From Chiloscyllium plagiosum (Eukaryota): 64,000 nucleotides of DNA. A program made the translations under genes and the position numbers. The stretch lies in contig NC_057710.1 in assembly GCF_004010195.1 (NCBI RefSeq), positions 155,403,057 through 155,467,056 of the forward strand, read 5' to 3'. The notes under the pieces are model-generated. The model had not been told where the DNA came from and did no database searches. It saw only the letters and a list, made by a program, of their open reading frames with translations. Position 1 is the stretch's first letter, and every line of letters starts with the position of its first letter. Shown piece after piece: positions 3,390-54,239 of the stretch.

Positions 3390-3610
3390 CTGATTGGTCA
3401 AGTCCACAGAATCCACCTGCCTGCTTTAAAATTTAAACAAGGCCGAGCATTTAACTTTAGTTATTATTAATTGATGCATTCCCCATGGCAACATCCATCA
3501 ATCAGAATCCTCTTCTCAATCTCTTTAATTGGTATTCTTGTGAATAGTCCTGATGAGTGCACAACAAAAAGCTTCAATAAAATGTGACTTTTCTCAGCAC
3601 TACCAAAGTC
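3390..3610 (+). mobile_element. Old PLE-derived terminal repeat with degenerate hammerhead core
   Basis: gtcCTGATGAgtgcacaacaAAAAGCTTC at 3547-3575: hammerhead core remnant with AAGCTT palindrome. Confidence 0.45.
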
Positions 3611-3973
3611 AGTTCTGCAAATAACTATTTATTTGGAGTTAATTAACTTACATCTACAAAATAGGATTTTTATAGAGAAGATTGGGAATGGTAACTCCTT
3701 GTTTTAGTTTACTGAGGATGCAGTTGACAAATAATAATCAAGAGGAGTGACAGCATGGATTTTTTTCTAGTCTTCATCCTGGCATAACTTTGAAACCAAT
3801 TGGCTGGAGTTATGTGCAAGCAACAGGGGAAGTTGTGGGAGAAGAGGAAGCTCTCACAAGGGAGTATATTAGCTGCTAAACAAGTCAAATTAGAGTGACA
3901 TTTTTTTTAAAAAGGGACAGAGACAGAATAAGACAAATAGCAAATATGTTGGACCAAAATGTCAAGGGACAAG

Positions 3974-4172
3974 GTTTAAAATCACACAACACCAGGTTAT
4001 AGTCCAACAGGTTTATTTGGAAGCACTAGCTTTCGGAGTGCTGCTCCACAACCCCCTGGTAAAGGAGCAGAGCTCCAAAAGCTAGTGCTTCCAATTAAAC
4101 CTGTTGGACTATAACCTGGTGTTGTGTGAGTTTTAACTTTGTCCACCCCAGTCCAACACCGACATCTCCACA
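3974..4172. mobile_element. Short fold-back Penelope-like element (family B pLTR inverted against itself)
   Basis: About 70-bp inverted arms (aaaatcacacaacaccaggttatagtccaacagg... and its reverse complement); 12-bp TSD tcaagggacaag at 3962-3973 and 4173-4184; same family at 11645, 16812, 27891 and 53851. Confidence 0.85.
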
Positions 4173-5336
4173 TCAAGGGACAAGCACAGACAAAATGTTT
4201 AATCCTTATCCATGTATTTTATGCAGCTGTTTCATTTTCCATTATTCCTGAGATTGAAAAAAAATTACTGCAATTAGTATCAGAATATTAAACTGAAAAA
4301 TAACAACAGCATTTAGGGAGTTTCTCTGCACCTTTCCTTTGATGGGATAGTTTCCGTAAATCTCATGATGGACTTCATTACCTACTGTCAGTCCGGTGAG
4401 GAAAGTAAGTAGAAGGGGAATATGTTTGCGCTGATGTGGAAAAGAGGGTGAGAGATCGGGTGAAAATGAGGAAGGTACTAAAGTCAAGGGGTGACTATTT
4501 CTAACTGATGGTGAAACAAAGTAAGAAGCTTAGTCCTAAAAAGGCAAATGCTTTTAATTTGCATTTGACCTTCGACATCATTCAGGTCTGAATAGTTTTA
4601 AAGCTTGTCATTCCTATATTTTCATGTTTGCAATATACTTCTTCAATGCTAATGATTAATTTGCATTTTATCAAGGACTAAACGCTTATTGATAAATCCA
4701 ACAAATCAACTGAAGGATAAGAAATATTTTTTTCTTCTTTGTTTAATGTTTAAAGAAAACATTTCCCTGTTACAAACTGGAATCTCCACTGTAGGCTTCT
4801 TCATGCTAACATAACAGGAGCTTGGGAAAGTTAACCTTCCATTAATCCTGGGTTTCTATTATTACACCGGTGTGCAGCATGCCTGACTTTAACTGTGGTA
4901 AAAATGTTACGATTATAATGATGATGCAGCTTCCAATACCTCTTGCTGTGAGATTGTAATTGGAATATACTGAGTGCCATTCGAGAACCTAACCAATGCC
5001 AAATATATTCTTATGCAAGGCCAGTCATTTTTCAAGAGATAAATCATAGATATAATTATATACTTGTCTGTCTGATGTACGTCATCTGTGACCCTGATAG
5101 TTTGTCTTCATCCCTTGGATGTAATATTTAGAGTTCAAATAGATAAGCTATATGTTAAAGTCACATCTCATCCCAACTCTTTGTTAAATTAAACAGGCAC
5201 ATTTGCCGTATTATCTTTGCTTTAAAGAAAAGATAATTGGTCTGTAGGAGGAAAGGGCCTTTTCCTTGCCTGTGAAACAAATTGACGCATATTTTTCAAA
5301 AAAAACAGCCGAACAGAGCAGTAACTAGCACCTAGA

Positions 5337-5350
5337 GTTTCTATGGTAAC
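5337..5350. promoter_or_regulatory. Candidate RFX X-box
   Basis: GTTTCTATGGTAAC resembles the X-box consensus GTTNCCATGGNAAC, in non-repetitive DNA upstream of candidate exons. Confidence 0.35.
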
Positions 5351-5699
5351 TGCACTGAAGAGAAAAATTCTTCAGTGGGAAATGATGTGAATATTAATGT
5401 TGTTTTTTTTAAAACATATCATTCCTGCAGTATCCATTAATGATTTTGTCCAGAGCTGTGTCGATGGAGAGCCAGTTGCCAGTTCTTTCTGGAGGTAACC
5501 TTTGCAAATGCCAGGGGTTAATAAATATCCTGCAACACTGTAAACCAGATTTCTGCCTGATACAAGTCTGCCTGTTGCAATACTCATCAATAGCCAAAGC
5601 TGTATTGGTGCATGCTTCAACCGACTTGTCTCTCCCAGGTAACCTTCCATCTTCTGCACTATGCAGGTAGTGTCATTGACATTGTCTCTTCAGCCCCCA

Positions 5700-5927
5700 C
5701 CTCCCTCCTTTGAGAAACATCATGACGTGGATAACAAAACTGGCAGCTGCTCCTTCATCCACATGGGGATTGAGCAGATGGAAAACAGTACACTTTCAGG
5801 AAGCAGCTTTGTTGTGCTCTCGTGCTGAAAGCCAGATTTACAACTCTCTGTCCTTTCCTTTTAGTTTTCCTTTTGTAATTAGCTATTGCTGGAACAATGC
5901 ACAACTTTCACTAGTACTTTTCTAAAT
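5700..5927 (+). other. Candidate non-coding (5' UTR) exon; start approximate
   Basis: Unique sequence ending in donor AAT|GTAAGT (5928-5933); TGACGT motif near 5724. No transcript data. Confidence 0.3.
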
Positions 5928-14663: not shown

Positions 14664-15706
14664 AATGTCGTATTTGATGATTAACCACATTCAAGAGTTA
14701 AAAAGAAATGTCAGTGCCCATGGAACTATTCCTTAGGGGAAAGTTCAAAAGCTTTGGATGAGATGAAGGGAAAAAAATGATCATCTTTGAAAGTATAAAG
14801 AAGCTACAGTGCAAATATCGCTTTCAAGAGCACTCAATGACAGAAATAGATAGTTCAGTGGTGGGAAGTTTGAAATGTTAATTAGACATCAGATTGGATT
14901 CAGAAAATTGAAGGATAGTTAGTGTGCTGTTGGTCTTTAAACACATGTACAAAGAATAATCTTCAGAATCATAAACAGACTAATTTAACAACAACAAGCT
15001 GAAACACAGCTTCGAAGGGTCGTATATATAACTGACCTTGAACAGAAGAGAAAAAGGAAATTATGGAATAGTTTGCATCGAGCTCAAAGCCACAATCACT
15101 GGGGGGTTTGAGGTTGTTGAAAGCTGGGAAAAGGGGTGTCAGGACAAGCAAAACTAAAGAGGGAATTTGTGAGAATTGGTATTTAGTGGCTGAAGCAACA
15201 ACCATTGATGATATAACAGGATGTGTGGGGAATAAAGACTTGTCTTCTCTCACAGGAGGAGAGACTGTATAAGTGGAGGAGTTGGCAAAAGCTACAGTGG
15301 ACTGAGCTGGAGATGGGTTTTAATGAGGAAGTGAAGATTTTAATGACTGAAACATGGGGAGCTTTGGAACATGTATTAAGAATGTAATTGGAGCATGTAT
15401 GTAGAAAGACAAGACCGTGCATCACAATATTCTGATTAAAAATTAGAATTAGAATAAGACGTGAGCTACAAAATTACTAGAGACGCTGAGACAGGAGGTG
15501 GAAGAAACGACTTTGGAAATGCACTGATATTTAAGGCAGGAAGTTAAGGTTAGGGTTCAGGTTTGAGATCTCCTAACACAGACTGAGGTGACAGTAGGGA
15601 GAACAGAGGCACCCCGAAATTGGGAGGGAATGTTAACCACGAGAGAACTTAATGGAGGAGGAGGCCCAAGTGATTATCAAACCTGGTTAACTTCAGCAGT
15701 TTGTGG

Positions 15707-16609
15707 ATCAGTGGTGCTGGAAGAGCACAGCAATTCAGGCAGCATCCGAGGACAGGCAAAATCGACGTTTCGGGCAAAAGCCCTTCATCAGGAATAAAGG
15801 CAGAGAGCCTGAANNNNNNNNNNNNNNNNNNNNNNNNNNNNNNNNNNNNNNNNNNNNNNNNNNNNNNNNNNNNNNNNNNNNNNNNNNNNNNNNNNNNNNN
15901 NNNNNNNNNNNNNNNNNNNNNNNNNNNNNNNNNNNNNNNNNNNNNNNNNNNNNNNNNNNNNNNNNNNNNNNNNNNNNNNNNNNNNNNNNNNNNNNNNNNN
16001 NNNNNNNNNNNNNNNNNNNNNNNNNNNNNNNNNNNNNNNNNNNNNNNNNNNNNNNNNNNNNNNNNNNNNNNNNNNNNNNNNNNNNNNNNNNNNNNNNNNN
16101 NNNNNNNNNNNNNNNNNNNNNNNNNNNNNNNNNNNNNNNNNNNNNNNNNNNNNNNNNNNNNNNNNNNNNNNNNNNNNNNNNNNNNNNNNNNNNNNNNNNN
16201 NNNNNNNNNNNNNNNNNNNNNNNNNNNNNNNNNNNNNNNNNNNNNNNNNNNNNNNNNNNNNNNNNNNNNNNNNNNNNNNNNNNNNNNNNNNNNNNNNNNN
16301 NNNNNNNNNNNNNNNNNNNNNNNNNNNNNNNNNNNNNNNNNNNNNNTGGGGAAGGAAATATATCCCTGGTGGTGGTGTCTTTTTGGAGGTGGCGGAAATG
16401 TCGGCGGATGATTTGGTTTATGCGGAGGTTTGTAGGGTGGAAGGTGAGCACCAGGGGCGTTCTGTCCTTGTTACATTTGGAGGGGTGGGGTCTGAGGGCG
16501 GAGGTGCGGGATGTGGACGAGATGCGTTGGAGGGCATCTTTAACCACGTGGGAAGGGAAATTGCGGTCTCTAAAGAAGGAGGCTATCTGGTGTGTTCTAT
16601 GGTGGAACT
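15707..16609 (-). mobile_element. Penelope-like element (family A), RT C-terminal region plus pLTR, spans N gap
   Basis: QFHHRTHQIASFFRDRNFPSHVV...DRTPLVLTFHPTNLRINQII is the PLE RT thumb/linker; 11-bp TSD gcagtttgtgg at 15696-15706 and 16610-16620. Confidence 0.85.
15760..15795 (-). ncRNA. Minimal type I hammerhead ribozyme motif (PLE family A)
   Basis: Minus strand: CTGATGA-a-gggc-tttt-gccc-GAAACGTC. Confidence 0.75.
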
Positions 16610-16811
16610 GCAGTTTGTGGCCCACGTTACTTTAACTCCCAGCCCTCAATGCATCCTGCTGGCTGCCCGTTTGACCCAAGCAGTTTAAACAGTCAAGAAG
16701 ATTAAAATTATGGCATCCTGCAGTTTTCCTGTTGGTGCCAGAGTAAATCTCAAGGATCAGAGTTCTCTCATGTATATTAATGAGGAACCTGGGACAACTA
16801 GTGAGCACCAA

Positions 16812-17086
16812 TTGTTACAGTTAACCTGAGAATGCAACTTTTTTAAAAAAGGGTCTTGTGATGAAAGAAGTGAAACTATCATAGTATTCTAACAGATGAA
16901 AGCCTCAACAAACAATTAAGGTATTATTCAATGTATAATTTCAGTTACATCACACTGTAAACTTTTGCTATAAATTCTGTGTCTTACAATTGTGTACTCC
17001 ACAACCACCTGAAGGAGCGTCGCTCCGAAAGCTAGTGCTTCCAATTAAACCTGTTGGACTATAACCTGGTGTTGTGTGATTTTCAA
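16812..17086 (+). mobile_element. PLE family B 3'/pLTR fragment (hammerhead core has a 3-nt deletion)
   Basis: ccacctgaaggagcgtcgctccgaaagctagtgcttccaattaaacctgttggactataacctgg. Confidence 0.8.
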
Positions 17087-18309
17087 ACTTGGAAGCACTG
17101 CTACTCGTCCTGGCCCGGTGAAGGATTTTTAAAAAAAAATTAGCTTGAAGAATTCCTCCTTGTCTGGTTTTACTGAGAATGACATCCAATGGGGGGTCCT
17201 CCATTTAAGAAGTGATTAAAATGCGATTGGGATCCGGTGACACCAACAAACCCTGATTTCCCTTGGTTCAAATGGGGTTTTCACCGGAAACATCTCAAAC
17301 ATCTAACTGAAGGCTCAGTTCAAACAGTGGCAGTTGGAAATTGTGAGCTAACAGGTTTCATATCTTTGAACTGGTATTCGAACTGTGCCGCCCATCCATG
17401 GCAGTGCAGGGTTGGTTAGAATCTTCCATGCTGGTTACAGTTTAGCTGGAGAAAGCTTTGCATTAGCTCATGTCAGGTAAATTTTAAAAAAGATGTTGGA
17501 TTGAGCAGAGAGTCAGAGAACTGAAACTGAGGGCAGAGCCTTCACCACGTTTTTGGCTAAGTGCCAGTCATGTTGAATTTGGTGGAGTGATTCTTGCGCT
17601 GAGCTGAGTGAGTTTCTTATTGGTTTAATTGGCGTTGAGCCAATCCAGTGAGAATCATATCGTATTTCCACCCCAGCTTACTCTCTGGAGTAACTCGCCA
17701 CTCACCAGAGGGTCCCAGAATTGATTGGCATTCGTGGCATCACGGTCATCCTTAAAAGGACATTGTGTACCCCGACCAGCACTGCCTGTTTGCAACTACT
17801 ATAGGTTTAGGGTTAGGGTTGAGAGTAGGGTTAGTTTGTAGTGAGTTTGTACCTGCCCTGCACAGATGATGATGTTTGCCCTCAGCTTGGTAAACAAGGG
17901 GAGATTGGTGCCCTGCTTTGCAGATGTAGTCCAGGAGCTCCTGCCAGAATAGAGAGGCACACAGTGGGGACATCATCTCTACCCCCAGGAGCACCAGAGG
18001 AAGCCATGACGCCAGACCCATGCTAGTCTCCTTTGAAGTTGTTCCCTTGTTGAAGCAACCATGTCCTTTTCCATTCTGCCACCATCTTCTCTCCGACACC
18101 TCACACTCACTCCATCTCTGCTTTGGGCCCACCTTCCACCAAGGCTCATTCTCTACCATTCTCACAAATGCCTGCAACATCTTGCCCACTCAGTATCACT
18201 CACCCCAACCCTCTGACACCATTAAACCTGGATATCCTCCTCTCTGCCTACATACTCGTTTAGGACTCCTCCCTCCCCATCTGTCTACTTTCGTTTTCCA
18301 TAACACCTG

Positions 18310-18310
18310 C

Positions 18311-20014: not shown

Positions 20015-20350
20015 TCATGGGTGTGGAATGGCCTGCCTGCCAATGTAGGTCAGGCAGCATCCGAGGAGCAGGATTCCTGATGAAGGGCTTTTGTCCGAAA
20101 TGTTGATTTTCCTGCTCCTCGGATGCTGCCTGACCTGCTGTGCTTTTCCAGCACCACTCTAATCTAAACCCTGATTTCCAGCATCTGCAGTCCTCACTTT
20201 TGTCTGCCTGCCAATATAGTTAACTCAACCACATTAGGGGCATTTTAACAATCCTTGGATAAGCACATGGATGATGATGGGATAGTGTAGGGGGATGGAC
20301 TTAGATTAGTTCTGTTCTGCGCTGTATTGTTCTATTGTTCTATGTTCTTC
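20015..20350 (+). mobile_element. CR1 3' end interrupted by a fold-back PLE (20049-20203)
   Basis: CR1 tail (gttctat)n at about 20310-20348; PLE flanked by TSD ctgcctgccaat(g/a)tag at 20033-20048 and 20204-20219. Confidence 0.75.
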
Positions 20351-20415
20351 CATTGTCTGTCTGAACACATAAAAATGATATAATTGGAGCAGCAAACCCA
20401 AACAGCAAGTTTGGT

Positions 20416-21179
20416 GTTGTGGTTCTGTTCGCTGAGCTGGAAGTTTTTCTTGCAAACGTTTCGTCCCCTGGCTAGGCGACATCATCAGTGCTTGGGAGCC
20501 TCCTGCGAAGCGCTTCTTTGATGTTTCCTCCGGTGTTTATAGTGGTCTGTAGCAATGTACAGCACAGAAACAGACCTTTCGTCCAACCTATCCATGCCGA
20601 ACAGATATCCCAACACAATCTAGTCCCACCTGCCAGCACCNNNNNNNNNNNNNNNNNNNNNNNNNNNNNNNNNNNNNNNNNNNNNNNNNNNNNNNNNNNN
20701 NNNNNNNNNNNNNNNNNNNNNNNNNNNNNNNNNNNNNNNNNNNNNNNNNNNNNNNNNNNNNNNNNNNNNNNNNNNNNNNNNNNNNNNNNNNNNGGATGCT
20801 GCCTGACCTGCTGTGCTGTTCCAGCAATAAAGTTTCAACTTTGATCTCCAGCATCTGCAGACCTCACTTTCTCCCCAGAGAACAGCCAGGGAATTCCTAG
20901 AGGCATGGCATTCATCCACAAACTCCATCAACAAACACATCGACCTGGATCCAATATACCAACCACTACAGCGGACAGCTGAAACTGACAACCGGAAGTG
21001 GCAGGGACAGACCACTATAAACACCGGAGGAAACATCAAAGAAGCACTTCGCAGGAGGCTCCCAAGCACTGATGATGTCGCCTAGACAGGGGACGAAACG
21101 TTTGCAACAAAAACTTCCAGCTCGGCGAACAGAACCACAACAACGAGCACCCGAGCTACAAATCTTCGCACAAACTTTG
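20416..21179 (+). mobile_element. PLE family C with inverted 5' pLTR and GIY-YIG C-terminus; nested CR1 tail and PLE-A piece around N gap
   Basis: QRTAREFLEAWHSSTNSINKHIDLDPIY from 20876; arms at 20416-20548 and about 21008-21143 are inverted; 12-bp TSD agcaagtttggt at 20404-20415 and 21180-21191. Confidence 0.85.
21066..21105 (+). ncRNA. Minimal hammerhead ribozyme motif (PLE family C); antisense twin at 20452-20491
   Basis: gca-CTGATGA-t-gtcgcct-agac-aggggac-GAAACGTT-tgc; stem I gca/tgc. Confidence 0.75.
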
Positions 21180-21865: not shown

Positions 21866-22150
21866 AGAATTCTGAAGAAGTATCAGTGGGCCTGAAACGT
21901 TGACTCTGATTTCTCTCCATGGATTCAGCCAGACATGCTGAGATGTCCCAGCAGTTTCTGTTTTTGTTAGTAATTAGGACTATGCCTTGGCTCACTGAAT
22001 ACACACTCCATCTGACTTAGGGTTGAAAAACCACAAATGACAATGGCACTTTGGTACTGAAAGGGAAGTCATGCAGATCTTGAAATGTTAATTCTGTTTT
22101 TCTCTCCACAGATGCTGCCAGACCTGCTCCATTTCTCCAGCACTTTTGAC
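21866..22150 (+). mobile_element. Two old PLE pLTR remnants (family E) with degenerate hammerheads
   Basis: CTGAAGAagtatcagtgggcctGAAACGTT and tails ctctccacagatgctgccagacctgct; related copies at 23896-24035 (-) and 34110-34220 (+). Confidence 0.6.
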
Positions 22151-22559
22151 TTTTAAGATTAATTTTGATCCTATTTAAAATTCTCCCAGACAGCATTAAG
22201 AATCAATTAGGTAATGCGGCATCTGCAGTCCTCCCTTTCTCCTGAGTAATGTGAGTCTAGAATTACCTGTAGACCAGTTCTGGGGCTATAGAGAGTCTGA
22301 TTGTCTGGTCCTTCCAAGGATGAGAGATCCCCCCACTGAGAGGCAATGGCACACTCTCAGACAATGGTAGTCTGCCCACACATTCTGGGCCTGTCAACGT
22401 CTCTCTGACTTTCCTTCAAGGAGTAAGGAGACGGGGCGGGGAGCAGTTCAACCTCGGTAAAATGGAGTGAGCTGAGAAGGGGGCCTATGCAAGTCAAGCT
22501 CCATTTCAAATGCAATTTGCAAATGTTCATTCAAATCTGTTAATAAATGTTGAGATGGG

Positions 22560-23880: not shown

Positions 23881-25369
23881 ACTACATACAGCTTAGTAAA
23901 AGCAAAGTCCTGTGGATGCTGGGTATCTGAAGTCAAAACATAAAGTGCTCCATAAACTCAGCTAGTCTGTCATCGTCTGTAGACAGAGAAACAAAGATAA
24001 CATTTTCAGTCCAGTATGACCGTTCTTTGGAACTAAAGACAATGCAAGAAGCTGCACAAAAGAGCTGGTTATTGTAATTGTTAATTCCTTTCACCACAAT
24101 CATGTCAAGGTAAGGCAAATACCACACTGTCCATGGCTCCTTGGCTGTTTTGTGTATCAGACTCCTAGCAGGTTGCTGCTGCAGGTGTAAGTAAGACTGC
24201 CTGGTGGGGTCGGGTTAGTATAGGGAGGAATAAAAGCAAGTGTGATTCCTTACACTAGGATTACAGTGAAGAATATCCTCTCATAGTCAGGGATGGATGT
24301 CTCATAGTACTGAGGAGGAAAGGTGTGCGTGAGAGTGGTGTCCGGTTTCACTAGAGCTGGCGTAAGAGGCACAGTGTCTCCTTACTGGGGTCTGCGGTTT
24401 AGAGAGAAGTGACTCCTTATGCTGGAGCTGGGAGAAACGTTAACTGGTGTTTGAGCAAGGGCTGAAGGACCCTGGAATGACCTTGTGATAAATTCACCAA
24501 GCAGTTCTTCACTGGGCATAAATAGCACAGTTTGGGCAGAGTTAGAGGAAGGAAGACAAACATATAGACAGCCAGGCTGAACTCTAGTCCCATGAGTTAG
24601 AAACGCACGCTTGTGGAATAGACAGACGCGTATTAGGCAGTAGAGTTCATTGGAATGGTCTTCAATAATGTACAGGTTGTTCTGCTATAATACGTGTTTT
24701 GTTAATGTGAATTCACTGTAACATGATTGACAAATTGGGGATGTTGTTTCTAAAGCATGAACTTTTAAAATGTGTGTTGGCTGTCATGCGATCACATCGC
24801 CAATACTTTCAGTGCTGTTTCTAAAGTGTGACTTTTCAATAACATGGGCTTGCACAAGAAACAACCATTGCGTTATGGAAGAACTGACTGTAACAATAAC
24901 ATTAAAGACAGTTCGTGACCCTGCCTTCTGCTTGACTAATCCATCTTGGAGCCAACCTCATGGATGTGGATGTAAACCTACACACCAAGAGAGGGTGTGA
25001 ATGTAAATGTGAACTGGAGGACAGGCTAGAGGCAAGGGAAACCCCTTCGAGGAGTGGCCCCTCAGAGGAAAGGACACCAATTGCTCAGCATATATAGGCA
25101 AAATATTTTGCATTGTACCCACTCCATAGATTTGCACACCTTTGAAAGTAACTAATTTGCAAGCAGAGAAAAATCAATATTGTAGTGTGTACTCGCCTCT
25201 CCCAGTCAGACAAACAAGATGGTCAATGGTCTGCAGTGGTCCCCGGATAAGTGCTGCTTTAATCCATTGGTTAAAACTGTTAAACAGGAACACAAAGATG
25301 TTTGACTTGCACATCATAACAAGGTTGGATTTTTTTATGATAAAAAAATTAATGTAAAAATGAGAAAAG

Positions 25370-27890: not shown

Positions 27891-28411
27891 ATGTGGAGGA
27901 GCCGGTGTTGGACAGGTGTGTACATAGTTAAAAATCCCATAACACCAGGTTACAGTCCCAACAGGTTTATTTGGAAGCACTAGCTTTCGGAGCGCTGCTC
28001 CTTCATCAGGTGGCTAGTGGGACAGGATCATAGGACACAGAATTTAATCACTTAGAATGAGTTGCAGGTTTCAATTCATTAATATGTAAATCTCAGAACT
28101 CCTTTCAAGTCACATTCCTGAGATAACTTCAGGTTTTATAATAAAAAGGTGACATCTCAGCTCAGACAATGCACTCTGGGGCATACACATTAATGAATTG
28201 AAACCTGCATCCCCATTCTAAGTGATTAAAGATTTAACAGCAATCTAGCTTTATTCAATACATCACATTCAGTTGTATGACACTTTGATCTTTTACTATA
28301 AATTCTGCTTCCTATGATCCTGCCCCACTAGCTCCCTGATGAAGGAGCAGCGCTCCGAAAGCTAGTGCTTCCAAATAAACCTGTTGCACGATAACCTGGT
28401 ATTGTGTGATT
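27891..28411. mobile_element. Fold-back PLE (family B) with two opposed hammerheads
   Basis: Inverted arms; TSD ttaaacaa(g/t)taag at 27878-27890 and 28412-28424. Confidence 0.85.
27978..28012 (-). ncRNA. Minimal hammerhead ribozyme motif (PLE family B); + strand twin at 28333-28367
   Basis: cac-CTGATGA-a-ggagc-agc-gctcc-GAAAGCTA-gtg; stem I cac/gtg; stem III palindrome AGCT. Confidence 0.75.
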
Positions 28412-28784
28412 TTAAACAATTAAGGGAATTGGTTTTTTTTTAATGTTTTCCACAAATGAGTAATCATTTCATTAAAGTAGCTCAAATATTACTGAAGCCT
28501 TGGTTAAGATAGTTTTGTAAAATGAACATATTCTAATGGGGATTAACCATGCACTGAACAGCAGGACAGCTGACAAACACAATGCATGTCCCACTAACTA
28601 CCACTCTCTGGGCTCTAGTAGGACTGCCATGCACATATCTCAGTACCTCAGAGATTACTAGAGTGATCCCACTAATGGTTGTCAGCTCCCTTAGCATTTC
28701 AGTGCTTTGTCTGTGATATGGATGATAGGAACAATAAAAATAAGCTTCTCTGAAATGATATTTGCAAGCAAGCATTTCTTAGAT

Positions 28785-33317: not shown

Positions 33318-33665
33318 ATGCTCTGGATGTAGGTTTGCTCGCTGAGCTGGAAGGTTTGTTTTCAGATGTTTCGTCATCATACCGGGTAACATCATCAGTG
33401 AGCCTCTGGATGAAGCACTGGTGGCATGGCTTGCTTTTTATTTGTATGTTTAGGTTTGCTTGGGTTGATGATGTCATTTCCTATGGTGATTTCATTTCCT
33501 TTTTTTGTCGGGGTGGTAAATGGGATCCAAGTCAATGTGTTTGTTGATAAAGTTCCTGTTGGAATGCCATGCTTCTAGGAATTCTCGTGCGTGTCTGTTT
33601 GGCTTGTCCTAGCATGGATATGTTGTCTCAGTCAAAGTGGTGTCCTTCCTTATCTGTATGTAAGT
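33318..33665 (-). mobile_element. PLE (family C-related): GIY-YIG C-terminus plus pLTR with hammerhead (33362-33401)
   Basis: Minus strand HTDKEGHHFD*DNISMLGQAKQ/AREFLEAWHSNRNFINKHIDLDPIY; tca-CTGATGA...GAAACATC-tga. Confidence 0.85.
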
Positions 33666-35027: not shown

Positions 35028-35245
35028 AGGAGAAAGTCAGGACTGCAGATGCTGGAGATCAGAGACAAAAGGTGTGGTGCTGGAAAAGCACAGCCGGTCA
35101 GGCAGCATCTGAGGAGTAGGACAGTCGATGTTTTGAGCATAAGCCCTTCATCGGGAATGTGTAAGAGCTCATGCCCGAAACGTTGACTCTCCTGCTCCTC
35201 GGATGCTGCCTGACTGGCTGTGCTTTTCCAAATTCACACTCTTTG
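35028..35245. mobile_element. Fold-back PLE (family A)
   Basis: Inverted arms; TSD aca(g/a)gtaaaccaa(c/t)aca at 35011-35027 and 35246-35262. Confidence 0.8.
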
Positions 35246-35280
35246 ACAAGTAAACCAATACAGCCAGCTGGGAGTTTTTG

Positions 35281-37383: not shown

Positions 37384-37639
37384 GTAAAAACAATGACTGC
37401 AGATGCTGGAAACCAGATTCTGGATTAGTGGTGCTGGAAGAGCACAGCAGTTCAGGCAGCATCCAAGGAGCTCGAAATCGACGTTTTGGGCAAAAGCCCT
37501 TCATCAAGAATAAAGGCAGTGAGCCTGAAGCGTGGAGAGATAAGCTATTCCTGATGAAGGGCTTTTGCCCGAAACGTCGATTTCGAAGCTCCTTGGATGC
37601 TGCCTGAACTGCTGTGCTCTTCCAGCACCACTAATCCAG
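37384..37639. mobile_element. Young fold-back PLE (family A) inserted into a tRNA-like SINE head
   Basis: About 90-bp near-perfect inverted arms; TSD agttt(g/c)ggtttgag at 37370-37383 and 37640-37653; host gtggagcagtggtagtg A-box at about 37333. Confidence 0.85.
37547..37582 (+). ncRNA. Intact minimal hammerhead ribozyme motif (PLE family A)
   Basis: CTGATGA (37551) a-gggc-tttt-gccc GAAACGTC (37571-37578). Confidence 0.75.
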
Positions 37640-40399
37640 AGTTTCGGTTTGAGTCTTGCCTGCTCCTGGAGCTGTGTTATAACATAGCCAAACAGATGGA
37701 TTAAAATGATTAGCTTGCTGCATATTTCCCATGTCTTAATTTCAGATTTTCAACCTCCCTCTTTATCGCTTCCCAACTATCAGACAGCTGCCTGGATAAA
37801 AGAATAACAATGGTATATAAAAATGAATAAAAATGCATAAAAAGTGACTTAATTTAATTGAGGGCTCTGGCATAATAAAGCAATCAAATGTGTCACACTG
37901 AGATTTGTAAATGGAATGTTCTCGAATGGAAGAGTTTGATTTAGGACGTGCCTGCGCATACTATGCATATTATTCAAAAATGTAGCTAATCAAACTTTGG
38001 CCAAAGAGGCTTAGAGGTTGGAAATCGTTATTTAAATTTATGTCAGAAGGAAGAATTATGTGAAAGAAAATTGAACAGCCAGAAATGTAATTTTTAAGGA
38101 AGCCACAGGCTTGTGTAATGTAACAAAATATAATGAGACGACTCTCAATGGGGATTGTGAAAATCCCATTATTTTTAGACAGCATGGGATAATGGCCACT
38201 TATTCACCAGAGACCTTTATTATTCCGTGGGATCAAAGCACCCTGGCATCCCGAGATGGTAGGCATTGTCTCTGACCGTGGATTGCCTTCTAATGCTCTT
38301 TTTAATTGAAATGAGGTTCTGAAATGAAAGCAAACGTTTCCAACTGCAGCTGTTAGTAGTTTGTGACTTCACAGTATGCCGGTCTAGGGAGCTGGAATGA
38401 GTGGGTGGACGGGGGAGAAGATATTGTTGACAACTAATGAAGCTCATTGGTCTGCAATGACCTAGCAGACAATATGGAGCAGCCTCATCAGGGCCTCTGA
38501 GTGGAACCTCAGTATTGCTATTGGTGTGGGCAGGCTGAGCTACAAATAGCGGTCAGCTGAGCTGTGGGAGGTAACACATATTTATGCAGAGCAATGTGTT
38601 ACTGAACTGTGTGGGATAAATATGCAAATGTGTGTTTCTATGCCCTTCTGGCAAACTGCGTATCCCTCTTTGTTCCAGAACATTCAGGGAGGAAGCTGAA
38701 CACAATCGCCTGATAATTAAAGAGGCAGTATACTTGTGAAAGCATATATTGGAAACATTGCAGAGAGAGAGAGAGAAGTGACCTGTGTCATTTTTATTCC
38801 ACCAATATCTCTGACCGGGATGTGATTCATGACTTGCCTGGGTTTCATTCAGTTAGTACCCCTTTAGAGGAATGGCTGTCCTCCACTATAAATAATCAAT
38901 AGCATCTTTTACAAAATGGAATTATGGTCAAAGTTATTCTGAGTGTCTTTCTTCACCTAAGATAACGCTACTCTTTAAATACCAGTTATCTTAATGGCAT
39001 CTTAAAGAGAGGCAGTGCTTTAGAAAACTTGCCAGCACTGAGCAATTTTATTAATTGTGATCTACATTAACAATGTCAAAGGTTACTGTAGTACATGGAT
39101 GTTCTGAGGGTTTTGTCTGGTTCGATCTAAGTGGTTGCCTGGTGATCCCTGACCTCTCCCAGTGCAGTAGTGTGGGGAAAATATAGCATTTTCAGTGTTT
39201 TGCTGGTTGTTTCACTTGTAATCAGTGCAGATTTTCATGTCAAAATATTAGCATGTACTGGTGAAGCTGCAGGGATGGAGATCCCATCAGAAAACCTCTG
39301 TAATTTCACAGGTCCCAGCCAGTCAGGAACTCTGAGCAGAATCAGGTTGATTAAATAGTCAGGCAGAATTTAATATAATTGGCAAGTAAAATGGTGAGTT
39401 CCAAAACTAAACCAGAGCACAGGACCACACAACACAAATACTATCCTTTGAAACATTTTGAGTAATTCAGTTTTGTCAATTTCTGTGGAGGAAAAAAATA
39501 CCTGCAGCATTTAAATCCCTGCAAATATCTTTCCTTCAGTGCCACTAATGCAATTACAGTTCAATTCAATTGCATCCAATTTAACAGAATAGTAGAACTC
39601 ATGTTGCACATAATGAGCATCAAAGTATAATGACTCTGTGGTAATCTTATCCCAGTGTTCCTGTCTTTTATCAAAAGAGAGATGGAGACACTGTGTGAGG
39701 AAATTGGGTTCTTTCTTTCTAAAGAAACGTAATTATAGATCTTGGTTAATGATTGGTCTCGACTGTAGAATCTTTTCAAACAAAGAGCTTGTGACAGCAG
39801 TGACAATGTCTCTCCCTGCCCCCCTCCTCTTGCATTTTGTTGTTGTTCAGTGTTTCATTTGTAATCCAGGCTGCATTGGCAATGGCACCGTTCAGGAACG
39901 GGGAATCATTTCTTCAATTTGATTTGAACCCTAATGTCATGCAAATCCGAAGTGGTCACTGTATGGCTTCGATTGGGAGAATTACAATCAGCATTTACAT
40001 GTCAGCCAGTGATTGAATTGAATCAGACTGCTGAACCACTTACACCAAGCCCCTGCTCACAGCCAGGATGAAATTAAAGCCCTTCGATGCTGGTTTTTAG
40101 TTGGGGTCCCTTCATGATTTTCCATCCACCGGGTCTGCAGCAGGACAAGTGTCAGGACACAAATTCATCTTCCTTTCTGATCACTTGTGTTGTTCCAAAA
40201 TTGGTTTCTCTTCCTCCCTCAATTAATTTTACCTGCTTAATAGAGTTCAGCATTGGACCCATTATTCTCTTCAGACAGGTGGTTAAGGGAAGACATAAAT
40301 GAGGCATGCAAAATTCCGAATATTGTTGAGCTGGTAGGTTGAGGTAGGGCTTGAACAGGGAACTAGAGTTGAGCTAAAAGATCAGCCTCATCGAACAAA

Positions 40400-44325: not shown

Positions 44326-44329
44326 ACAT

Positions 44330-46115: not shown

Positions 46116-46610
46116 GTGAGGAGAAAGTGAGGACTGCAGATGCTGGAGGTCAGAGTTGAAGGGTGTGGTGCTGGAAAAGCACAGCAGGTCAGGCAGCATC
46201 CGAGGAGCAGGACAGTCGATGTTTTGAGCATAAGCTCTTCATCAGGAATGTGTGGCGGGGGAGGGGGAGGAGACACTAAGGGGGCTGAGAGATAAAAGGG
46301 AGGGAAGTGGAGCTGGGGGGAAGGTAGCTGGGAAGGTGATAGGTAGATGCAGGTGGGAGGGTGATGGTGATAGGTCAGAGCAGAGGGTGGAGCAGATAGG
46401 TGGGAAGGAAGATGGACAGGTAGGAAGTTCAAGAGGGCGGTGCCAAGTTGGAGGGCTGGATCTGGGATAAGGGGGTAGAGGGGAGATGAGGAAACTGGCG
46501 ACATTAATCCTGTGTAGATGGATGGTTCCAAGGTGGAAGATGAGGCGTTCTTCCTCCAGGCATCGGATGGCAAGGATTTGGCAGTGGAGGAGGCCCAGGA
46601 CTTGCATGTC
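46116..46610 (-). mobile_element. PLE family A 3' part (GIY-YIG C-terminus plus pLTR)
   Basis: MQVLGLLHCQILAIRCLEEERLIFHLGT; degenerate hammerhead at 46215-46246. Confidence 0.85.
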
Positions 46611-47116
46611 CAGGAGAACATCTAGTTAAGTGCAATGAAACCCGTTTCAGTTTTGTTTCAGACATTTCCAGGGCTAGGTGGGGACAACCAATGGAGGTTG
46701 AGTGATGCTCCAATAGACATTGAAATACTATCAAGTCCCTTTCTTTTGGAGGGTGGAGGGACCAGTGTCAGAACTTGCTGCCCAGAAGAGTCACGTTCTG
46801 TTCACACATGCAGAGGCAATAAGTTGAAAAGCATGTAATCACTCTAACAACTGATACACCCCTGTCATAATGATGCCTAAGGCACAGTTTCCAAAACAGA
46901 GTAAGGTTCACCCAGTGTATTTTGATGGTGGCTTCCTTTATTGTATCTCCTTAAACTTGGTAATGCAATGATAATTACTTCCAACATGATGGCAACTTCC
47001 TTCAGTAATTTGTTTCATTTATTTATCCCTTGCCTTCCTATCCACCAATGTTAAGTATCTTTACCATTGGAGAAACCTGGGAGAAATGTTCCTCGCAGGA
47101 CACAATGGATCATTTA

Positions 47117-47327
47117 CTGGATTAGTGGTGCTGGAAAAGCACAGTAGTTCATGCAGCATCCAAGGTGCAGTAAAATCGACGTTTCGGGCAAAAGCCCTGT
47201 ATTCCTGATGAAGGGCTTTTGCCCGAAACGTCAATTTTACTGCTCCTCGGGTGCTGCCTGAACTGCTGTGCTCTTCCAGCACCACTAATCCAGAATCTGG
47301 TTTCCAGCATCTGCAGTCATTGTTTTT
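47117..47327. mobile_element. Fold-back PLE (family A) with intact + strand hammerhead core (47205-47232)
   Basis: Inverted arms; 15-bp TSD acaatg(g/a)atcattta at 47102-47116 and 47328-47342. Confidence 0.85.
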
Positions 47328-48834
47328 ACAATGAATCATTTAGTCTCAGCAATGGAACAAAGTGCACATTGTGGAGCCAATTAGTCCAAAGGCTAAATGT
47401 CCCTTTCTCATGCTGTAATTTTTACATTAATGTATCTGCATTATTTTATACACAAGCATTTTGTTTGAAATATCTCACAAATATGGAAAGCTTTTCAGAG
47501 TACAATAAATTCAATCTTTTAATTTCTTCGCAACAATCATATAATTGGATGGGATAATATTCTCAAGAGTTACATAATGAAAAGGAAGATATAATTTCTT
47601 TCTTATCAGAAATATACAGAGTCTTTCCACAAGAGGATTTTTGTCTGATTTATTTTCTCTCAACAGACAACACATTACTCTGAAAACTGAGAGGGCATAC
47701 TATGTTTGTTTAGCTGAATTCAATCTGTGACTAAGCAGCTGGCATATTTCCCATTGAACAATGACATCTCCTCTGTTCAGCAGTTCACAATGGTTTTATT
47801 GGCCTCTCCACCAAATCCCAGTTGTTTTCACAAAGTTGGAAGTCCAAAGGAACAAAGAATCCCAGTAAGAGCAGAATTGTTCTACAACACCATCTGCTAC
47901 AGAGAGAATCAAAGCTTTGATAAGTGAGGCACTGCCCTGTACAAATTGATGGGACTATGGAGGGATTTTAATGCCTGCAACTTGGTGGAAACCAGGCATT
48001 ACTTAGCAATAATCTTCTGACACTATTTCATTCTATGAGGTTAACAGGGGCTGAGACATTTACCTCATTTGGGTAGGAACCTTATGATTGCACATTCATA
48101 GAATACAGAACATAGAACGTTACAGCGCAGTACAGACCCGTCAGCCCTCGATGTTGTGCTGACCTGTGAAATTAATCTGATTAATTGATTAATTAATCTA
48201 CACTGTTTCATTATTATCAACTTAAATGCCCTTAATGCTGCCAAGTCAGCTACTGTAACAACTTTCCTACTGTGTCGGTTAGACCCCCAAACTATTTTTG
48301 TAGCCTATTGAACAGGAGCATTTACTGTGAACTCTCTGACCAAATGAATCTATTGACCAAGAAGCAGAGGTCCTTGAAGGTCTGGTTTTGACAGGACATG
48401 GGGAACAGGATTAGTGGGGAGACCCTGCAGTGTTTTTTGCAATGTCATCCTTTGCCTGAAGGGAGGAGCAGTCTTTGATCCAATTGGTGCGTGGGGCACT
48501 GGGTGGCAGGTGGCCCAGTTTAATGCCAGCCTGTCTTATGAAATAAACAGAGCAATGATAGATCTCCTTTGTCAGTCAGGACCTTGTGTCTGAGGCTGTG
48601 ACTATATGGGTGAAGAGGGGAGAGAGCCATTCCACCTACATTTGGTAGTTCATGTCAAATTCCGGATCCTCATCTCAATAATACAGCATAGTTAGGAACC
48701 CCATAGGAATATCTATTCTCACATCATTTACCAAGTTAAAGCTGTCAGAAACTAAGAGTAGTGACCAAAATTATTGGTGGTCTGAAGGCTTACGCCCTCA
48801 GAGTTTAGGGTGGAACTTGAATTCTGCTAAGAGA

Positions 48835-50085: not shown

Positions 50086-50774
50086 GTTGGAGATATATAA
50101 TTTGGAAGCCTAAGCTTATAATATTATATTTTAGTATTTAATTACTAGTAGCAGTGCCTTGCACAAACTGTGCCTCATAATGTTGAGTGTAGATTCATGA
50201 TATGTAAGGGGGTGAAACGTATGAATGTGGAGTTATCATTCCAGCTGTAACCTTATTGAATACTGAAACAGACGTGAGGGGGTGAATGGTCTACTGCTGC
50301 TTTTGGTTAATATGTTCCCATCCATGTGAATGTCCATATGTACCATGATGAGTGATGTGACCCACACTGGGCTGGCAGAGACATAGTGGAACTAAGAAAA
50401 GGTGATGTTAATGATGGCTAAGCTATGGAATTGGAAGCTCAACTCAGGGTCAAATTGAACACCATTGTTACAAACAGTCTGGTTCAGCATCAGACAGCCA
50501 TTAGGGAGAGAACAGAATCATAAGTAAGTTTGTGTCAAGAACTGAAGGCAATGGTATCAGTTTTCCCAAAGTGTAGTGGATACCTCAGTATGGGGTATTA
50601 GATGAGCACTGCAAGAAAACAGATGTCGTAGTATGTAATGAACTAAGTAATTGTGTGAATAAATCGAATAACCTCATGACAAAAACACTAGGAATAGGTG
50701 CAGAAGTAGACCAGATGGCACACTGAGCCTGCTACACGCTTTGATATGATCACGGTCGTCACCTTAGCCTTCAG

Positions 50775-51460
50775 GTGGCATGGTAGCTCAGTGGTTAGCA
50801 CTACTGCCTCACAGTGCCAGCCACCCGGGTTCGATTCCAGTCTTGTGTGGAGTTTGCATGTTCTCCCCTTGTCTGCGTGGGCTTCCTCTGGGTGCTCCAG
50901 TTTCCTCCCATGGTCCAAAGACTTGCAGGTAGATAGGATAGTGAAGAGGATGTCTGGTATGCTTTCCTTTATTGGTCAGCGTATTGAGTACAGGAGTTGG
51001 GAGGTCATGTTGCAGCTGTACAGGACATTGGTTAGGCCACTGTTGGAATATTGCATGCAATTCTGGTCTCCTTCCTATCGGAAAGATGTTGTGAAACTTG
51101 AAAGGGTTCAGAAAAGATTTACAAGGATGTTGCCAGGGTTGGAGGATTTGAGCTAGTGGTGGAGGCTGGTACAATTGCAACATTTAAAAGGCATCTGGAT
51201 GGGTATATGAATAGGAAGGGTTTCGAGGGATATAGGGTATCTGGTTGGCATGGACGATTTGGACCGAAGGGTCTGTTTCCGTGCTGTACATCTTTATGAC
51301 TCTCTGTGTAGGTTAGCTGGATTGGCCATGCTGAATTGCCCATGGCATCCAGAAACATGCAGGCTTGGTGGATAGGCTATGGGAAATGCAGGGCTACAGG
51401 GATGCAGTGGGATGCTGAATGGCCTGCCCCCACACTGTTGGGATTCTACAATTCCACTCT
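50775..51460 (+). mobile_element. HE1 SINE split by a CR1 3' fragment (about 50931-51305)
   Basis: SINE head, then YRTLVRPLLEYCMQFWSP..LERVQKRFTRM and CR1 tail, then the SINE resumes (gattggccatgctgaattgcc). Confidence 0.85.
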
Positions 51461-51926
51461 ACTTTCTTGCCTGACCGTCAAAACAATCAGCTTTCTGTGG
51501 TTTCTCATGTACTTATAGAATGAATTTCTTTCTTAGCCATAATCCTTTTGCTTTGTCTTCCTGAATATGTATTTAACCAAGTGCTCTCACCTCCTGTGGC
51601 CCCTTTGATTTAAGTGAAAGCAGTGAGCATGGGCCCACAGTTTGATTATGAATGAATCATCCCAGCAAAGCCATTGCTACCTTGAGAGTGGACTGTTCAA
51701 GATCCTGATGAAGGGCGTTCGCCTGAAAGTCCTGCTCCTCAGATGCTGCTTGACCTGCTGTGCTTTTCCAGCACCACACTCTCGACACTATTCAAGGTCC
51801 ATCCCAGGGCTCCAGCACAAAAAAATCAAGGCCAATACTTGAGTTTTGATTTGACTTGATTTATCGTTGTTGTCATATGTACAGAGAAAAACTTCTGCAT
51901 TTCCGAGTGCTGCGCTGCTGGAGGTA

Positions 51927-52150
51927 GAGTAAACCTTTTATTAACCGTTACCGATCGGAGCAGGCGTGTGCCGATTAATCAAATATTCGGAATAATCAAG
52001 AGGTCCCTATAATCAGTGTACAAACATACAGAGAATAATAGACATAATGTAGCGGGTATACACATCACTATTGTACTTTATTTACAATATAAATCACTTA
52101 AATAATAATTGAATTTTGCCTTAGATAAAACTTACCAGTGAACAGCCTTC
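51927..52150 (+). mobile_element. Tigger/pogo-like DNA transposon remnant
   Basis: TA followed by gagtaaaccttttattaaccg...ccgattaatcaaatattcggaataatc resembles Tigger TIR and subterminal repeats. Confidence 0.4.
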
Positions 52151-52170
52151 TCACTCACACCCTCAACTGA

Positions 52171-53270
52171 ATAGAGTCATAGAGATGTACAGCACGGAAA
52201 CAGACCCTTTGGTCCAATCCGTCCATGCCAACCAGATATCCCAACCCAATCTAGTCCCACCTGTCAGCACCCGGCCCAAATCCCTCTAAGCCCTTCCTAT
52301 TCATATACCCATCCAGATGCCTCTTTAATGTTGCAATTGTACCAGCCTCCACCACATCCTCTGGCAGCTCATTCCATACACATACTCATTCTGTGTGAAA
52401 AAGTTGCCCCTTAGGTCTCTTTTATATCTTTCCACTCTCACCCTAAACCTATGTCCTCTAGTCCTGGACTACCTCACCCCAGGGAAAAGACTTTGTCTAT
52501 TTACCCTATCCATGCCCCTCATGATTTCATAAACCTCAATAAGGTCACCCCTCAGCCTCTGACACTCCAGGGAAAACAATATTCCAACAGTGGTCTAACC
52601 AATGTCCTGTACAGCCGCAACATGACCTCCCAACTCCTGTACTCAATACTCTGACCAATAAAGGAAAGTATATCAAACACATTCTTCACTATCCTATCTA
52701 CCTGCGACTCTACTTTCAAGGAGCTTCACTTTCCTGCTTTTTCCCCACAACCCTTGATTCCTTTATGGACTAAGTCAGTCTCAAATGTACCTAACAACAC
52801 AGTCTCACAGCCCTCTGCATAAAAAAAATCCCAGATCATCAATCTCACAGAGAAAATAATCATCCTCATCTCTGTCTTAAATAGGTCACTCACAACTTCC
52901 TGCACCTACCCTGTCGCATTCTCTAAAAATTGTACGTGCTTCAAATAGGTCCTCTCTCATTTTTCTAAACTCCAGTGAGTGCAAACCCAACCTACCCTAT
53001 TTTTCCATACAAGACAATCCCTTCTCTGCACTGCCTCCAATGCCAATATACATACATGGATTGGTACTTTAGCTGTACCTGCTGAAGTAAGACCATCCTA
53101 TTTTTATATTCTAATCCCTATTTATTAAAGGCCAACAATCCAATTGCCTTCACAATTACCCCTGAACTTGGATGCCAGCTTCTTGGGATTCATGCACTAG
53201 GACCCCAAAACTGCTTTCTGCAGTTCTTTCCCTATTTAAATAATATTCAGCTCTTCTATTCTCCCTAGCA
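52171..53270 (-). mobile_element. CR1/HER1 3' fragment (52171-52722) followed by an older CR1 fragment
   Basis: Same family as 60718; internal deletion relative to it. Confidence 0.85.
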
Positions 53271-53299
53271 AATGGTCTCAAAGTGACAAATGGTATGTT

Positions 53300-53760
53300 A
53301 CTACCAATGATGATGATGACAGAAGGGAAGCATGAGATGCCAGACGTACAGCTGTACTTCGTGCAATATCAGGAGCTTTGTAGACCTTGTGAGGTGGCTG
53401 AAGTTGGTGACCCAGAAATGAAGCCATCACAGATATAGTTAAGGCTCTATATTGGGATGTACCTCATTCCAAGAGGACCATCTAAGCTAAGGTATGAATG
53501 CAATAGAAAAAGAGAAGATCTGCAGTTCTAGACATTGTGATGAGTGAGAGTGGCCATCAAATCATGTATGAAGAATTCAGACACTTCATGAATGGTGCTG
53601 CGTTTCCCAATCTAGTGGAAAGGCCAAGGCAGCTAATGAAATAAAAATTAGATCCAGCTCAGAGATGCACAAGGCAATGCTGGAGTGGAGAATTGCCAAT
53701 ACTGAAGACATGGAAAGCAGTCCAGTCTAGTGTTTAATGTCATACTCTACCCAAACTATT
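53300..53760 (+). mobile_element. Gypsy-type integrase pseudogene fragment
   Basis: Pieces translate LDIVMSESGHQIMYEEFRHFMN (~SDNGPQF), SSGKAKAA (~SNGxAE) and HKAMLEWR..TEDMESSPV*CLMS. Confidence 0.65.
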
Positions 53761-53850
53761 CTTTCAATAGCTAAACAGCTACTGAATTGAGGAGTGGTAA
53801 CAGGAGTTAGGAATAAAATCAAAATTAAATTGAAAGCTGTGTTTTACTTT

Positions 53851-54239
53851 TGATTTGGAGATGCTGGTGTTGGACTGGGGTATACAAAGTTAAAAATCTC
53901 ACCACACCAGGTTATAGTCCAAGAGGTTTATTTGGAAGCACTAGCTTTCGGAGCGACGCTCCTTCATCAGGTAGCTGTGGAGAATAAGATCCTAAGACAC
54001 AGAATTTATAGCAAAAGTTTACAGTGTGATGTAACTGAAATTATACATTGAAAAATACCTGGATTGTTTGTCTTTTTCAATATATAATTCCACTTACATC
54101 ACACTGTAAACTTTTATTATAAATTCTGTGTCTTACGATCTTATTCTCCACAACCACCTGATGATGAAGCAGAGCTCCGAAAGCTAGTGCTTCCAAATAA
54201 ACCTCTTGGACTATAACCTGGTGTGGTGGGATTTTTAAA
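53851..54239. mobile_element. Fold-back PLE (family B); minus-strand hammerhead at 53939-53973
   Basis: About 165-bp inverted arms; TSD gttttacttt at 53841-53850 and 54240-54249. Confidence 0.9.

Follow-up and report, generated by a model that had tools for sequence, protein, structure and literature searches.

The window analysed here is a 64,000-nucleotide stretch of the Chiloscyllium plagiosum genome (RefSeq assembly GCF_004010195.1, contig NC_057710.1, positions 155,403,057 to 155,467,056, forward strand), in which a sequence-only reading had reported about 20 hammerhead ribozyme cores. All 20 sites proved to be copies of hammerhead-bearing repeat ends; the hammerhead origin of every site thus stood, but only 6 are fully intact. 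The sites belong to the features listed below. For minus-strand sites the earlier reading had given the low coordinate, and their core nucleotide C3 lies at 15791, 35154, 37507, 46245, 28009, 53970, 20488 and 33398.

3545..3582, plus strand: hammerhead remnant of family D, an old family with no ORF link found; G12 lost, helix III AAGCTT
3944..4162, unstranded: two inverted family B pLTRs, each with a broken core (C3-equivalents 4055-, 4056+)
15689..16631, minus strand: 5'-truncated family A1 PLE with an ORF fragment (16350-16631), an assembly gap, a pLTR and an intact hammerhead (15791-)
16972..17110, plus strand: family B pLTR, core with a 3-nt deletion (17009+)
20025..20188, unstranded: family A2 pLTR (core at 20077+) whose helix III has decayed, plus a short arm in inverted orientation
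20394..21173, unstranded: family C1 (Poseidon-like), two copies head to head, each with its hammerhead intact (20488-, 21069+); an ATG at A9 opens a frame
21867..21966, plus strand: pLTR of family E (A-related, old), core intact (21872+), stem II damaged
22054..22155, plus strand: family E pLTR, core broken, absent from the earlier list
23933..24035, minus strand: family E pLTR, core broken, absent from the earlier list
27902..28424, unstranded: family B head-to-head pair, hammerhead intact at 28009-, stem I damaged at 28336+
33323..33442, minus strand: family C2 (Poseidon-like) pLTR, core intact (33398-), helix III ACAT
35045..35261, unstranded: two inverted family A2 copies, one with a broken core (35154-), the other truncated within its core
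37406..37653, unstranded: family A1 head-to-head pair, core broken at 37507-, hammerhead intact at 37551+
46136..46625, minus strand: 5'-truncated family A2 PLE that retains a remnant of the GIY-YIG C-terminus and a pLTR whose hammerhead lacks G12 (46245-)
47090..47307, unstranded: family A1 fold-back pair, core intact (47205+), stem I damaged
51701..51812, plus strand: family A2 pLTR, helix III and cut site deleted (51705+)
53864..54262, unstranded: family B head-to-head pair, hammerhead intact at 53970-, stem II damaged at 54158+; AATAAA after the cut

The fully intact copies are 15791-, 20488-, 21069+, 28009-, 37551+ and 53970-. Another six (20077+, 21872+, 28336+, 33398-, 47205+ and 54158+) keep the core with a damaged stem or helix III, which leaves the conserved core intact in 12 of the 20 sites, and in eight (3550+, 4055-, 4056+, 17009+, 35154-, 37507-, 46245- and 51705+) the core itself is broken. 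Two copies spanning the motif, both of family E (22057+, 24030-), and 10 partial copies had been missed.

Comparison of nine subfamily consensuses showed that all 11 positions of the hammerhead core (C3-A9, G12-A14, A15.1, U16.1, H17) are identical in 9/9, while stems I-III vary pairwise around the fixed core. The stem I covariation proposed earlier (gca/tgc, cac/gtg, tca/tga) was borne out, the pairings among families being ATTC/GA(T,A)T, AGTT/AACT, CAC/GTG, TCAC/GTGA, GCA/TGC and TCA/TGA; in group A, the commonest, stem I is weaker, with 2 bp, a U-U mismatch and then an A-U pair. Stem II measures 4-6 bp across families, with 2 bp only in family D. Helix III is a palindrome (ACGT, AGCT or AAGCTT), i.e. 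the reduced form, and the earlier placing of these palindromes ahead of an NUH site also held, the triplets being GUC, GUU, CUA, CUU or UUC. The description of the motifs as minimal type I hammerheads within Penelope pLTRs is supported. A strict structural scan of the window gave 6 matches, versus 0 in each of 10 dinucleotide shuffles. An Rfam covariance-model scan of the window, with 17 matches at E up to 10, returned no hammerhead family and only hairpin-type chance matches. When core and flank were compared across copies, as the sequence-only reading had proposed, decay was lower in the core (5.1% vs 7.1%, p 0.04) but nearly neutral, and this comparison is a weak test because dead copies decay almost neutrally. 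The conservation signal is found between families, not among dead copies.

The claim of four to five Penelope families was upheld in that there are several, with ORF links for A, B, C and E, but none for D, for which 35 upstream flanks yielded 0 consistent ORF links. In many loci family A cores lie 40-300 nt downstream of GIY-YIG matches, and the family A protein, with a Cys linker (CHRRNCKTC) and a CxxC in GIY-YIG, is 92% identical to Chiloscyllium punctatum proteins, some of which carry RVT_1 and PF26215. RVT_1 is present in two Chiloscyllium proteins of 92-94% identity and was seen there, not in an ORF assembled here. Family B has a GIY-YIG with a Cys linker (CHSRRCKAC) ~650 nt upstream of the core, family C a GIY-YIG ORF that has no linker cysteines and runs into the core, and family E a GIY-YIG upstream in loci L037, L258 and L210. 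These GIY-YIG assignments were read from motifs and tblastn; in a Pfam scan of the PLE fragments GIY-YIG itself did not score, and a genome search with PF01541 was uninformative. We assign A, B and E to putative Neptune-like and C to putative Poseidon-like PLE pLTRs and leave D unlinked, the clade names being meant as '-like' only. Long open reading frames were rejected as N gaps, so that none of the ORFs assembled was complete. L052 and L071, at first taken for a further family 'F', were dropped because their motif arose by chance inside a CR1-like repeat. Most copies are 80-150 nt long and carry no ORF.

The ends of the copies show which RNA got copied. The 5' ends fall at -10..+6 from C3 in 113/244 family A and 26/56 family B copies, and in 0/36 family C copies. 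Because they gather immediately ahead of the core instead of at the cut, the templates were likely uncut RNA; among ordinary family A 5' ends in the searched range, only 5/170 lie at the cut base. The clustering does not reflect a hidden subfamily, because 0/59 non-inverted 5' flanks resemble each other. A transcription-start reading of these ends is unproven, since in A and B they are scattered over ~17 nt rather than at one base and a cap-derived extra G was not seen in 28 copies (5 G, 4 A, 12 C, 7 T). At the RNA level, family B poly(A) was found at 53912/53915, the sites lying 26-29 nt past the cut, and in one single-cell poly(A) run family B reads pass uncut through the cut site to poly(A). 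No pile-up of read ends at the cut was seen for A or B in that run, a library type that seldom shows such ends. RNA from the pLTRs was found from both strands, and 93% of pLTR reads continue into unlike sequence.

Minimal PLE hammerheads cut poorly in vitro, and anole RNA-seq showed no cleavage ends. In the shark genome we found nine U6-pLTR junctions (7 A loci, 2 B loci), all of them exactly at the predicted scissile bond, with the five terminal T of U6 directly abutting the first base past the cut. They comprise at least 8 different pLTR sequence variants, and in 5 of 9 the visible U6 portion is the last 12-13 nt only. From -21 to +9, the zone of most ordinary 5' ends, there were no U6 junctions. 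The junction bond is the hammerhead-defined one in two families that are unrelated and differ in their cleavage triplet, GUC in one and CUA in the other, and no microhomology exists between cut site and U6 T run. Two more U6 fusions (L282, L286) lie inside the family A ORF, and therefore U6 joins non-ribozyme sites too. Family C gave no U6 junction, the search covering families A, B and C. Together, these junctions suggest that the motif probably cuts in living cells, and by analogy with U6/L1 they would fit RtcB-type ligation. In the report on U6/LINE-1 chimeras (Moldovan et al. 2019, PMC6789731), U6>p is ligated by RtcB to RNA with a 5'-OH. Both systems share a five-T U6 end joined to a 5'-truncated retroelement, with a partner 5'-OH required, whereas the shark chimeras have a Penelope pLTR as partner and always join it at the ribozyme bond, the LINE-1 junctions being variable in position. 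We found no report of U6-Penelope chimeras in the openly accessible literature searched. Such junctions offer an inexpensive measure of cutting in vivo that needs nothing but a genome sequence and can be applied to other genomes rich in PLEs.

We consider it probable that the short, decaying, mostly inverted pLTR hammerheads were copied from uncut RNA and that the motif in RNA of active elements cuts at the predicted bond in the germ line. This reading draws on the motif anatomy, the ORF links of A, B, C and E, the covariation, the inverted layout, the 5'-end positions and the U6 junctions. The element RT would start inside the pLTR, ~75-110 nt past the core, and would run to the 5' end of a transcript starting a few bases before the core. 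A minority of RNAs would cleave themselves, the probable active form being a dimer held by the palindromic helix III, with the element protein assisting. An RtcB-type ligase, or alternatively an RT jump, could occasionally join the 5'-OH product to U6 with its 2',3'-cyclic phosphate end, and the joined molecule would then be reinserted. With somewhat less assurance, we lean towards regarding the shark junctions as a fossil record of germ-line cutting, in which U6 was ligated to the 5'-OH at the bond in two families and retrotransposed, and the Neptune-like ribozyme as an off switch. On this view that ribozyme would sit at the very start of the transcript and just ahead of a poly(A) site, where cleavage could cost the RNA its cap or its tail; if this is true, the hammerhead would be a built-in off switch, not a processing step.

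It seems unlikely that the motif is instead kept as a protein-binding or promoter/RT signal without self-cleavage, a nuclease or an RT pause making the U6 site. The U6 joins inside the A ORF are in keeping with such a signal, and in A and E the 5' strand of stem I (TCATT, TCAGT) resembles an initiator (Inr). The main template also seems to be uncut RNA, judging from the 5' ends and from PMC11167929, and the in vitro rates in PMC4209133 are low. However, the junctions sit on the hammerhead bond in two unrelated families, at GUC in one and CUA in the other, with no U6 T-run microhomology, and every catalytic core base is kept in the nine consensuses.

The window holds 22 spanning copies in 63,107 non-N bases, or 1 per 2.9 kb, in line with the remnant density of about one per 3 kb reported earlier, and intact motifs at ~1 per 10 kb. 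In genome samples (1.46 Mb) remnants occur once per 4.0 kb and intact motifs once per 21 kb. At the sample mean, 15.8 spanning copies would be expected in the window versus the 22 seen (Poisson p 0.08), so that its density is near the genome average and not special. In these samples (1,455,115 bases), 70/364 spanning copies are intact and 294/364 damaged, which extrapolates to ~165,000 intact motifs genome-wide. Exact-core searches returned 57,952, 51,029 and 1,116 matches, against 226, 228 and 46 for reversed-pattern controls, giving at least 110,097 exact cores, in even numbers between strands; the very high copy number proposed for this genome is supported.

Equating one motif per 3 kb with ribozyme load did not survive, with only 70/364 copies intact and 126/136 close pairs inverted. 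PLE insertion traits are evident throughout: inverted pLTR pairs, 5' truncation and clustered 3' ends. Only 10/136 close pairs are same-strand, and in 2 of these both motifs are intact. Of the 70 intact copies in the samples, 6 have another intact copy on their own strand within 4 kb; of the 6 intact motifs in the window, none has. The inverted arrangement therefore leaves no cis dimer and folds into hairpins: in transcripts through five inverted pairs, 4-7 of the 7 bases of the CUGANGA core are predicted to pair with the opposite arm. Isolated motifs were not predicted to adopt the hammerhead fold, whether in the MFE structure of the monomer or in the cofolded dimer, and the predicted gain from the helix III duplex is only -1.7 to -2.5 kcal/mol. 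It is rather improbable that the dispersed copies are active ribozymes cutting host transcripts, a true high load, for which one could cite the extrapolated number of intact motifs, pLTR RNA on both strands running mostly into unlike sequence, and the family B poly(A) sites, which lie past the cut, so that cleavage would remove the tail. The damage and inversion just described, the predicted pairing of the core, the even strand numbers and a core decay near that of the flanks all speak against it. Most genomic copies are passengers, not working ribozymes; 'ribozyme load' is overstated, and most of the ~10^5 count is inert repeat. Least probable is an independent non-autonomous family (retrozyme or SINE-like) replicating via circular RNA, as the short ORF-less copies and the pLTR-derived retrozymes reported in one chondrichthyan (bioRxiv 10.64898/2026.07.22.740005) might suggest, since tandem arrays would be expected yet same-strand close pairs are scarce, and outside family D the short copies, ragged at their 5' ends, align colinearly with the termini of elements that carry an ORF.

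Two further known systems come close to the shark elements. One is PAc, the Anolis carolinensis Poseidon (Frangieh et al. 2024, PMC11167929), in which RT has an internal start and copies mainly uncut RNA, cleavage needs the protein, and anole RNA-seq has no read ends at the cut. Shared with PAc are a pLTR hammerhead with a start codon starting stem II, two or more 3'-end sites with a tail, an uncut template and no RNA-seq ends at the cut; in C1 the ATG lies at A9 and the cut 28 nt on, versus 26 in PAc. PAc was assayed in vitro, whereas the shark motifs are predicted ribozymes, and the 5'-end pile-up at the core is seen in Neptune-like A and B but not in Poseidon-like C. With EN+ PLEs (Craig et al. 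2021, PMC8557442; Arkhipova et al. 2013, PMC3846280) our elements share strong 5' truncation, head-to-head inverted arms, an optional tail and a Cys linker in Neptune/Nematis that is absent from Poseidon; here, in contrast, most insertions have shrunk to nothing but the pLTR, and their 5' ends gather at the hammerhead.

The minimal hammerhead motif in PLEs is already published (PMC4209133). The motifs described there share with ours the core CUGANGA/GAAA/NUH, the extra base after A9, G10.1-C11.1, the loopless palindromic helix III, a multitude of consensus families in each genome, pairs on opposite strands at distances of 100-700 bp, and Neptune and Poseidon hosts in fish. The group A motifs here differ in their shorter stem I. 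The available main-text parts of that paper name no shark and give no in vivo cleavage evidence. Its counts are ~4,000 in coelacanth and ~9,000 in Xenopus, obtained by a different search from that giving our exact cores, and the ~10^5 intact motifs here amount to roughly ten times the published vertebrate figures.

A strict scan of the window for loopless type I hammerheads found six motifs, versus none in each of 10 dinucleotide shuffles, and profile searches built from this genome's own copies uncovered 32 pieces of Penelope-like pseudo-LTR (pLTR), of which 22 span the motif. Each of the 20 sites from the sequence-only reading was recovered among these pieces: six are intact, six retain the core with a damaged stem or helix III, and eight have a broken core. 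An Rfam scan gave no hammerhead match in the window. The 11 bases of the core are identical in all nine subfamily consensuses and the stems vary as pairs (stem I: ATTC/GATT, with GAAT in some A3 copies, AGTT/AACT, CAC/GTG, TCAC/GTGA, GCA/TGC and TCA/TGA; in family D, TTGTC, paired with GACAA in some copies but with a CpG-decayed form in most), while helix III is palindromic in every case, confirming the covarying stems and palindromic helix proposed earlier. This structure agrees with min-HHR as described in PMC4209133. The core is also better kept than the 3' flank, as had been expected, but by a small margin (non-CpG mismatches 7.7% vs 10.5% over 314 copies and, among 109 long ones, 5.1% vs 7.1%, p 0.04), a weak contrast that would fit selection on master elements with near-neutral decay of copies.

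The proposed Penelope origin was supported by GIY-YIG ORF links for families A, B, C and E, but no consistent ORF link was present among 35 flanks of family D, which is a real, old family. Group A cores sit 3' of the end of a GIY-YIG ORF whose frame carries both a Cys linker and a CxxC. Identity to this frame is 92% for proteins of Chiloscyllium punctatum, of which two have RVT_1, and about 60% for ray proteins, pointing to a bamboo-shark-like host. A Cys-linker GIY-YIG lies about 650 nt upstream in family B. Family E has a 3' pLTR in common with A, and three of its loci carry GIY-YIG upstream. In family C, the GIY-YIG ORF lacks the linker cysteines and extends into the core; in C1 a frame starts with an ATG at A9, resembling the anole Poseidon element PAc (PMC11167929). 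The Cys linker separates Neptune/Nematis from Poseidon in PMC8557442, and by that criterion A and B appear Neptune/Nematis-like and C Poseidon-like.

In the whole 3.56-Gb genome, exact core patterns numbered 57,952 (ACGT helix III), 51,029 (AGCT) and 1,116 (AAGCTT), compared with 226, 228 and 46 for reversed-pattern controls; the ACGT pattern covers CTGATGA only, and the total of 110,097 does not include the CTGAAGA subfamilies of group A and E. A sample of 151 evenly spaced 10-kb pieces from the 34 largest contigs (1,455,115 non-N bases) contained 514 pLTR pieces, 364 spanning the motif (1 per 4.0 kb) and 70 fully intact (1 per 20.8 kb), which would scale, if the samples are typical, to about 860,000 remnant and 165,000 intact copies genome-wide. 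The 22 spanning copies in the window are close to the 15.8 expected (p 0.08). The hammerhead finding is real, belongs to a known kind and is typical for this genome.

The earlier figure of about one motif per 3 kb stands as a count of remnants; the very high ribozyme load drawn from it does not. According to PMC4209133 and PMC6765202, such motifs probably depend on another copy on the same strand. Same-subfamily pairs no more than 1 kb apart lie mostly on opposite strands (126 of 136; 9 of 10 in the window), and only 6 of the 70 intact motifs in the samples, and none of the 6 in the window, have an intact partner on the same strand at a distance of up to 4 kb. Folding predictions for transcripts that span five inverted pairs place 4-7 of the 7 CUGANGA bases in pairs with the opposite arm. 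The active load is far below 1 per 3 kb. Within the 1.46 Mb sampled, both hammerheads are intact in only two close pairs of the same orientation, which are candidate natural dimers: L104:2224-2947 (C1, 226 bp apart) and L164:2259-2593 (A3, 334 bp apart).

Junctions with U6 bear on cleavage itself. Rfam gave 48 U6 hits; six from a single C25 cluster and two that overlap L297 were set aside, and we retrieved the other 40. Among these, four are joined to a group A pLTR, each at the first base past GUC, and two are fused within the A ORF, away from the ribozyme site:
G000:C16:21677687-21678089, U6 inside the family A ORF (L282)
C28:38807399-38807805, U6 inside the family A ORF (L286)

Pattern searches for U6-A junctions from -21 to +40 (relative to C3, the first core base) gave six matches, all at the first base past GUC and none upstream of +10. 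Merged over both searches, all seven loci join at the cut base, where only 5 of 170 ordinary A 5' ends in the searched range lie (p ~2e-11). Judged from sequence, the junctions are separate events, because their pLTR sequences differ. In family B, whose GTGTG variant is a real subfamily, both of two U6 junctions fall at the base following CUA; a search in family C gave none. Hammerhead cleavage leaves a 5'-OH. The end of U6 is a cyclic phosphate, which RtcB can join to 5'-OH RNA (PMC6789731); joining by a reverse transcriptase jump from a cut template would likewise require the cut. Our literature search found no paper on U6 joined to a Penelope pLTR at a hammerhead cut. The junctions give an indirect record of cleavage in vivo; this record and, separately, the map of copy 5' ends are what the analysis adds. 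Other U6 copies (L275, L276, L280, L285, L288-L295, L298, L306, L307) are followed directly by one and the same GC-rich, tRNA-like short repeat, which suggests a U6-headed chimeric SINE family.

Among 336 copies (after exclusion of those close to a locus edge, at an assembly gap or lacking the 3' pLTR), 5' ends cluster at -10..+6 in A (113/244) and B (26/56) but not C (0/36; Fisher p 2e-9). At least half of the clustered copies adjoin an inverted arm; among the 59 that do not, no two share a flank. A lesser rise lies at +27..+36, at and just past the cut (24/244 A, mostly A2; 2.4 ends per base vs 1.1 and 0.6 alongside). Given the internal RT start and uncut RNA template of PAc (PMC11167929), the simplest reading of this clustering is that run-off copying would reach a transcript start just 5' of the core. 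The clustered ends are ragged, and no cap-derived extra G was seen in 28 copies. The 5' strand of stem I in A2, A3 and E (e.g. L015:397-402) is TCATT or TCAGT, with its A at -4, within the zone of clustered ends; we take this to resemble an initiator.

Reads came from a single-cell poly(A) run whose organism may differ from the species of this genome. Group A reads at the pLTR represent both strands about equally, 93% continue into unlike sequence, and read ends show no pile-up at the cut. Family B reads at 53860-54060 carry poly(A) at 53915 (307 reads) and 53912 (421 reads); these sites lie 3' of AATAAA and 26-29 nt past the cut (53912-53932, minus strand), and coverage is continuous across the cut. 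Uncut RNA is thus polyadenylated at B ends in the sampled organism, maybe not this species.

The window also holds:
50710-51236 and 59936-61971, LINE-type RT fragments, several in inverted pairs (RVT_1 at 61525-61971), which we take to be probably CR1
55306-55668, minus strand, an open frame of 120 codons containing runs of His and of Arg, which may indicate a host exon or 5' region
45899-46080 and 47386-47567, long near-perfect inverted repeat (95-96%) outside the hammerhead families
54485-54631 and 55085-55231, long near-perfect inverted repeat (95-96%), likewise outside the hammerhead families
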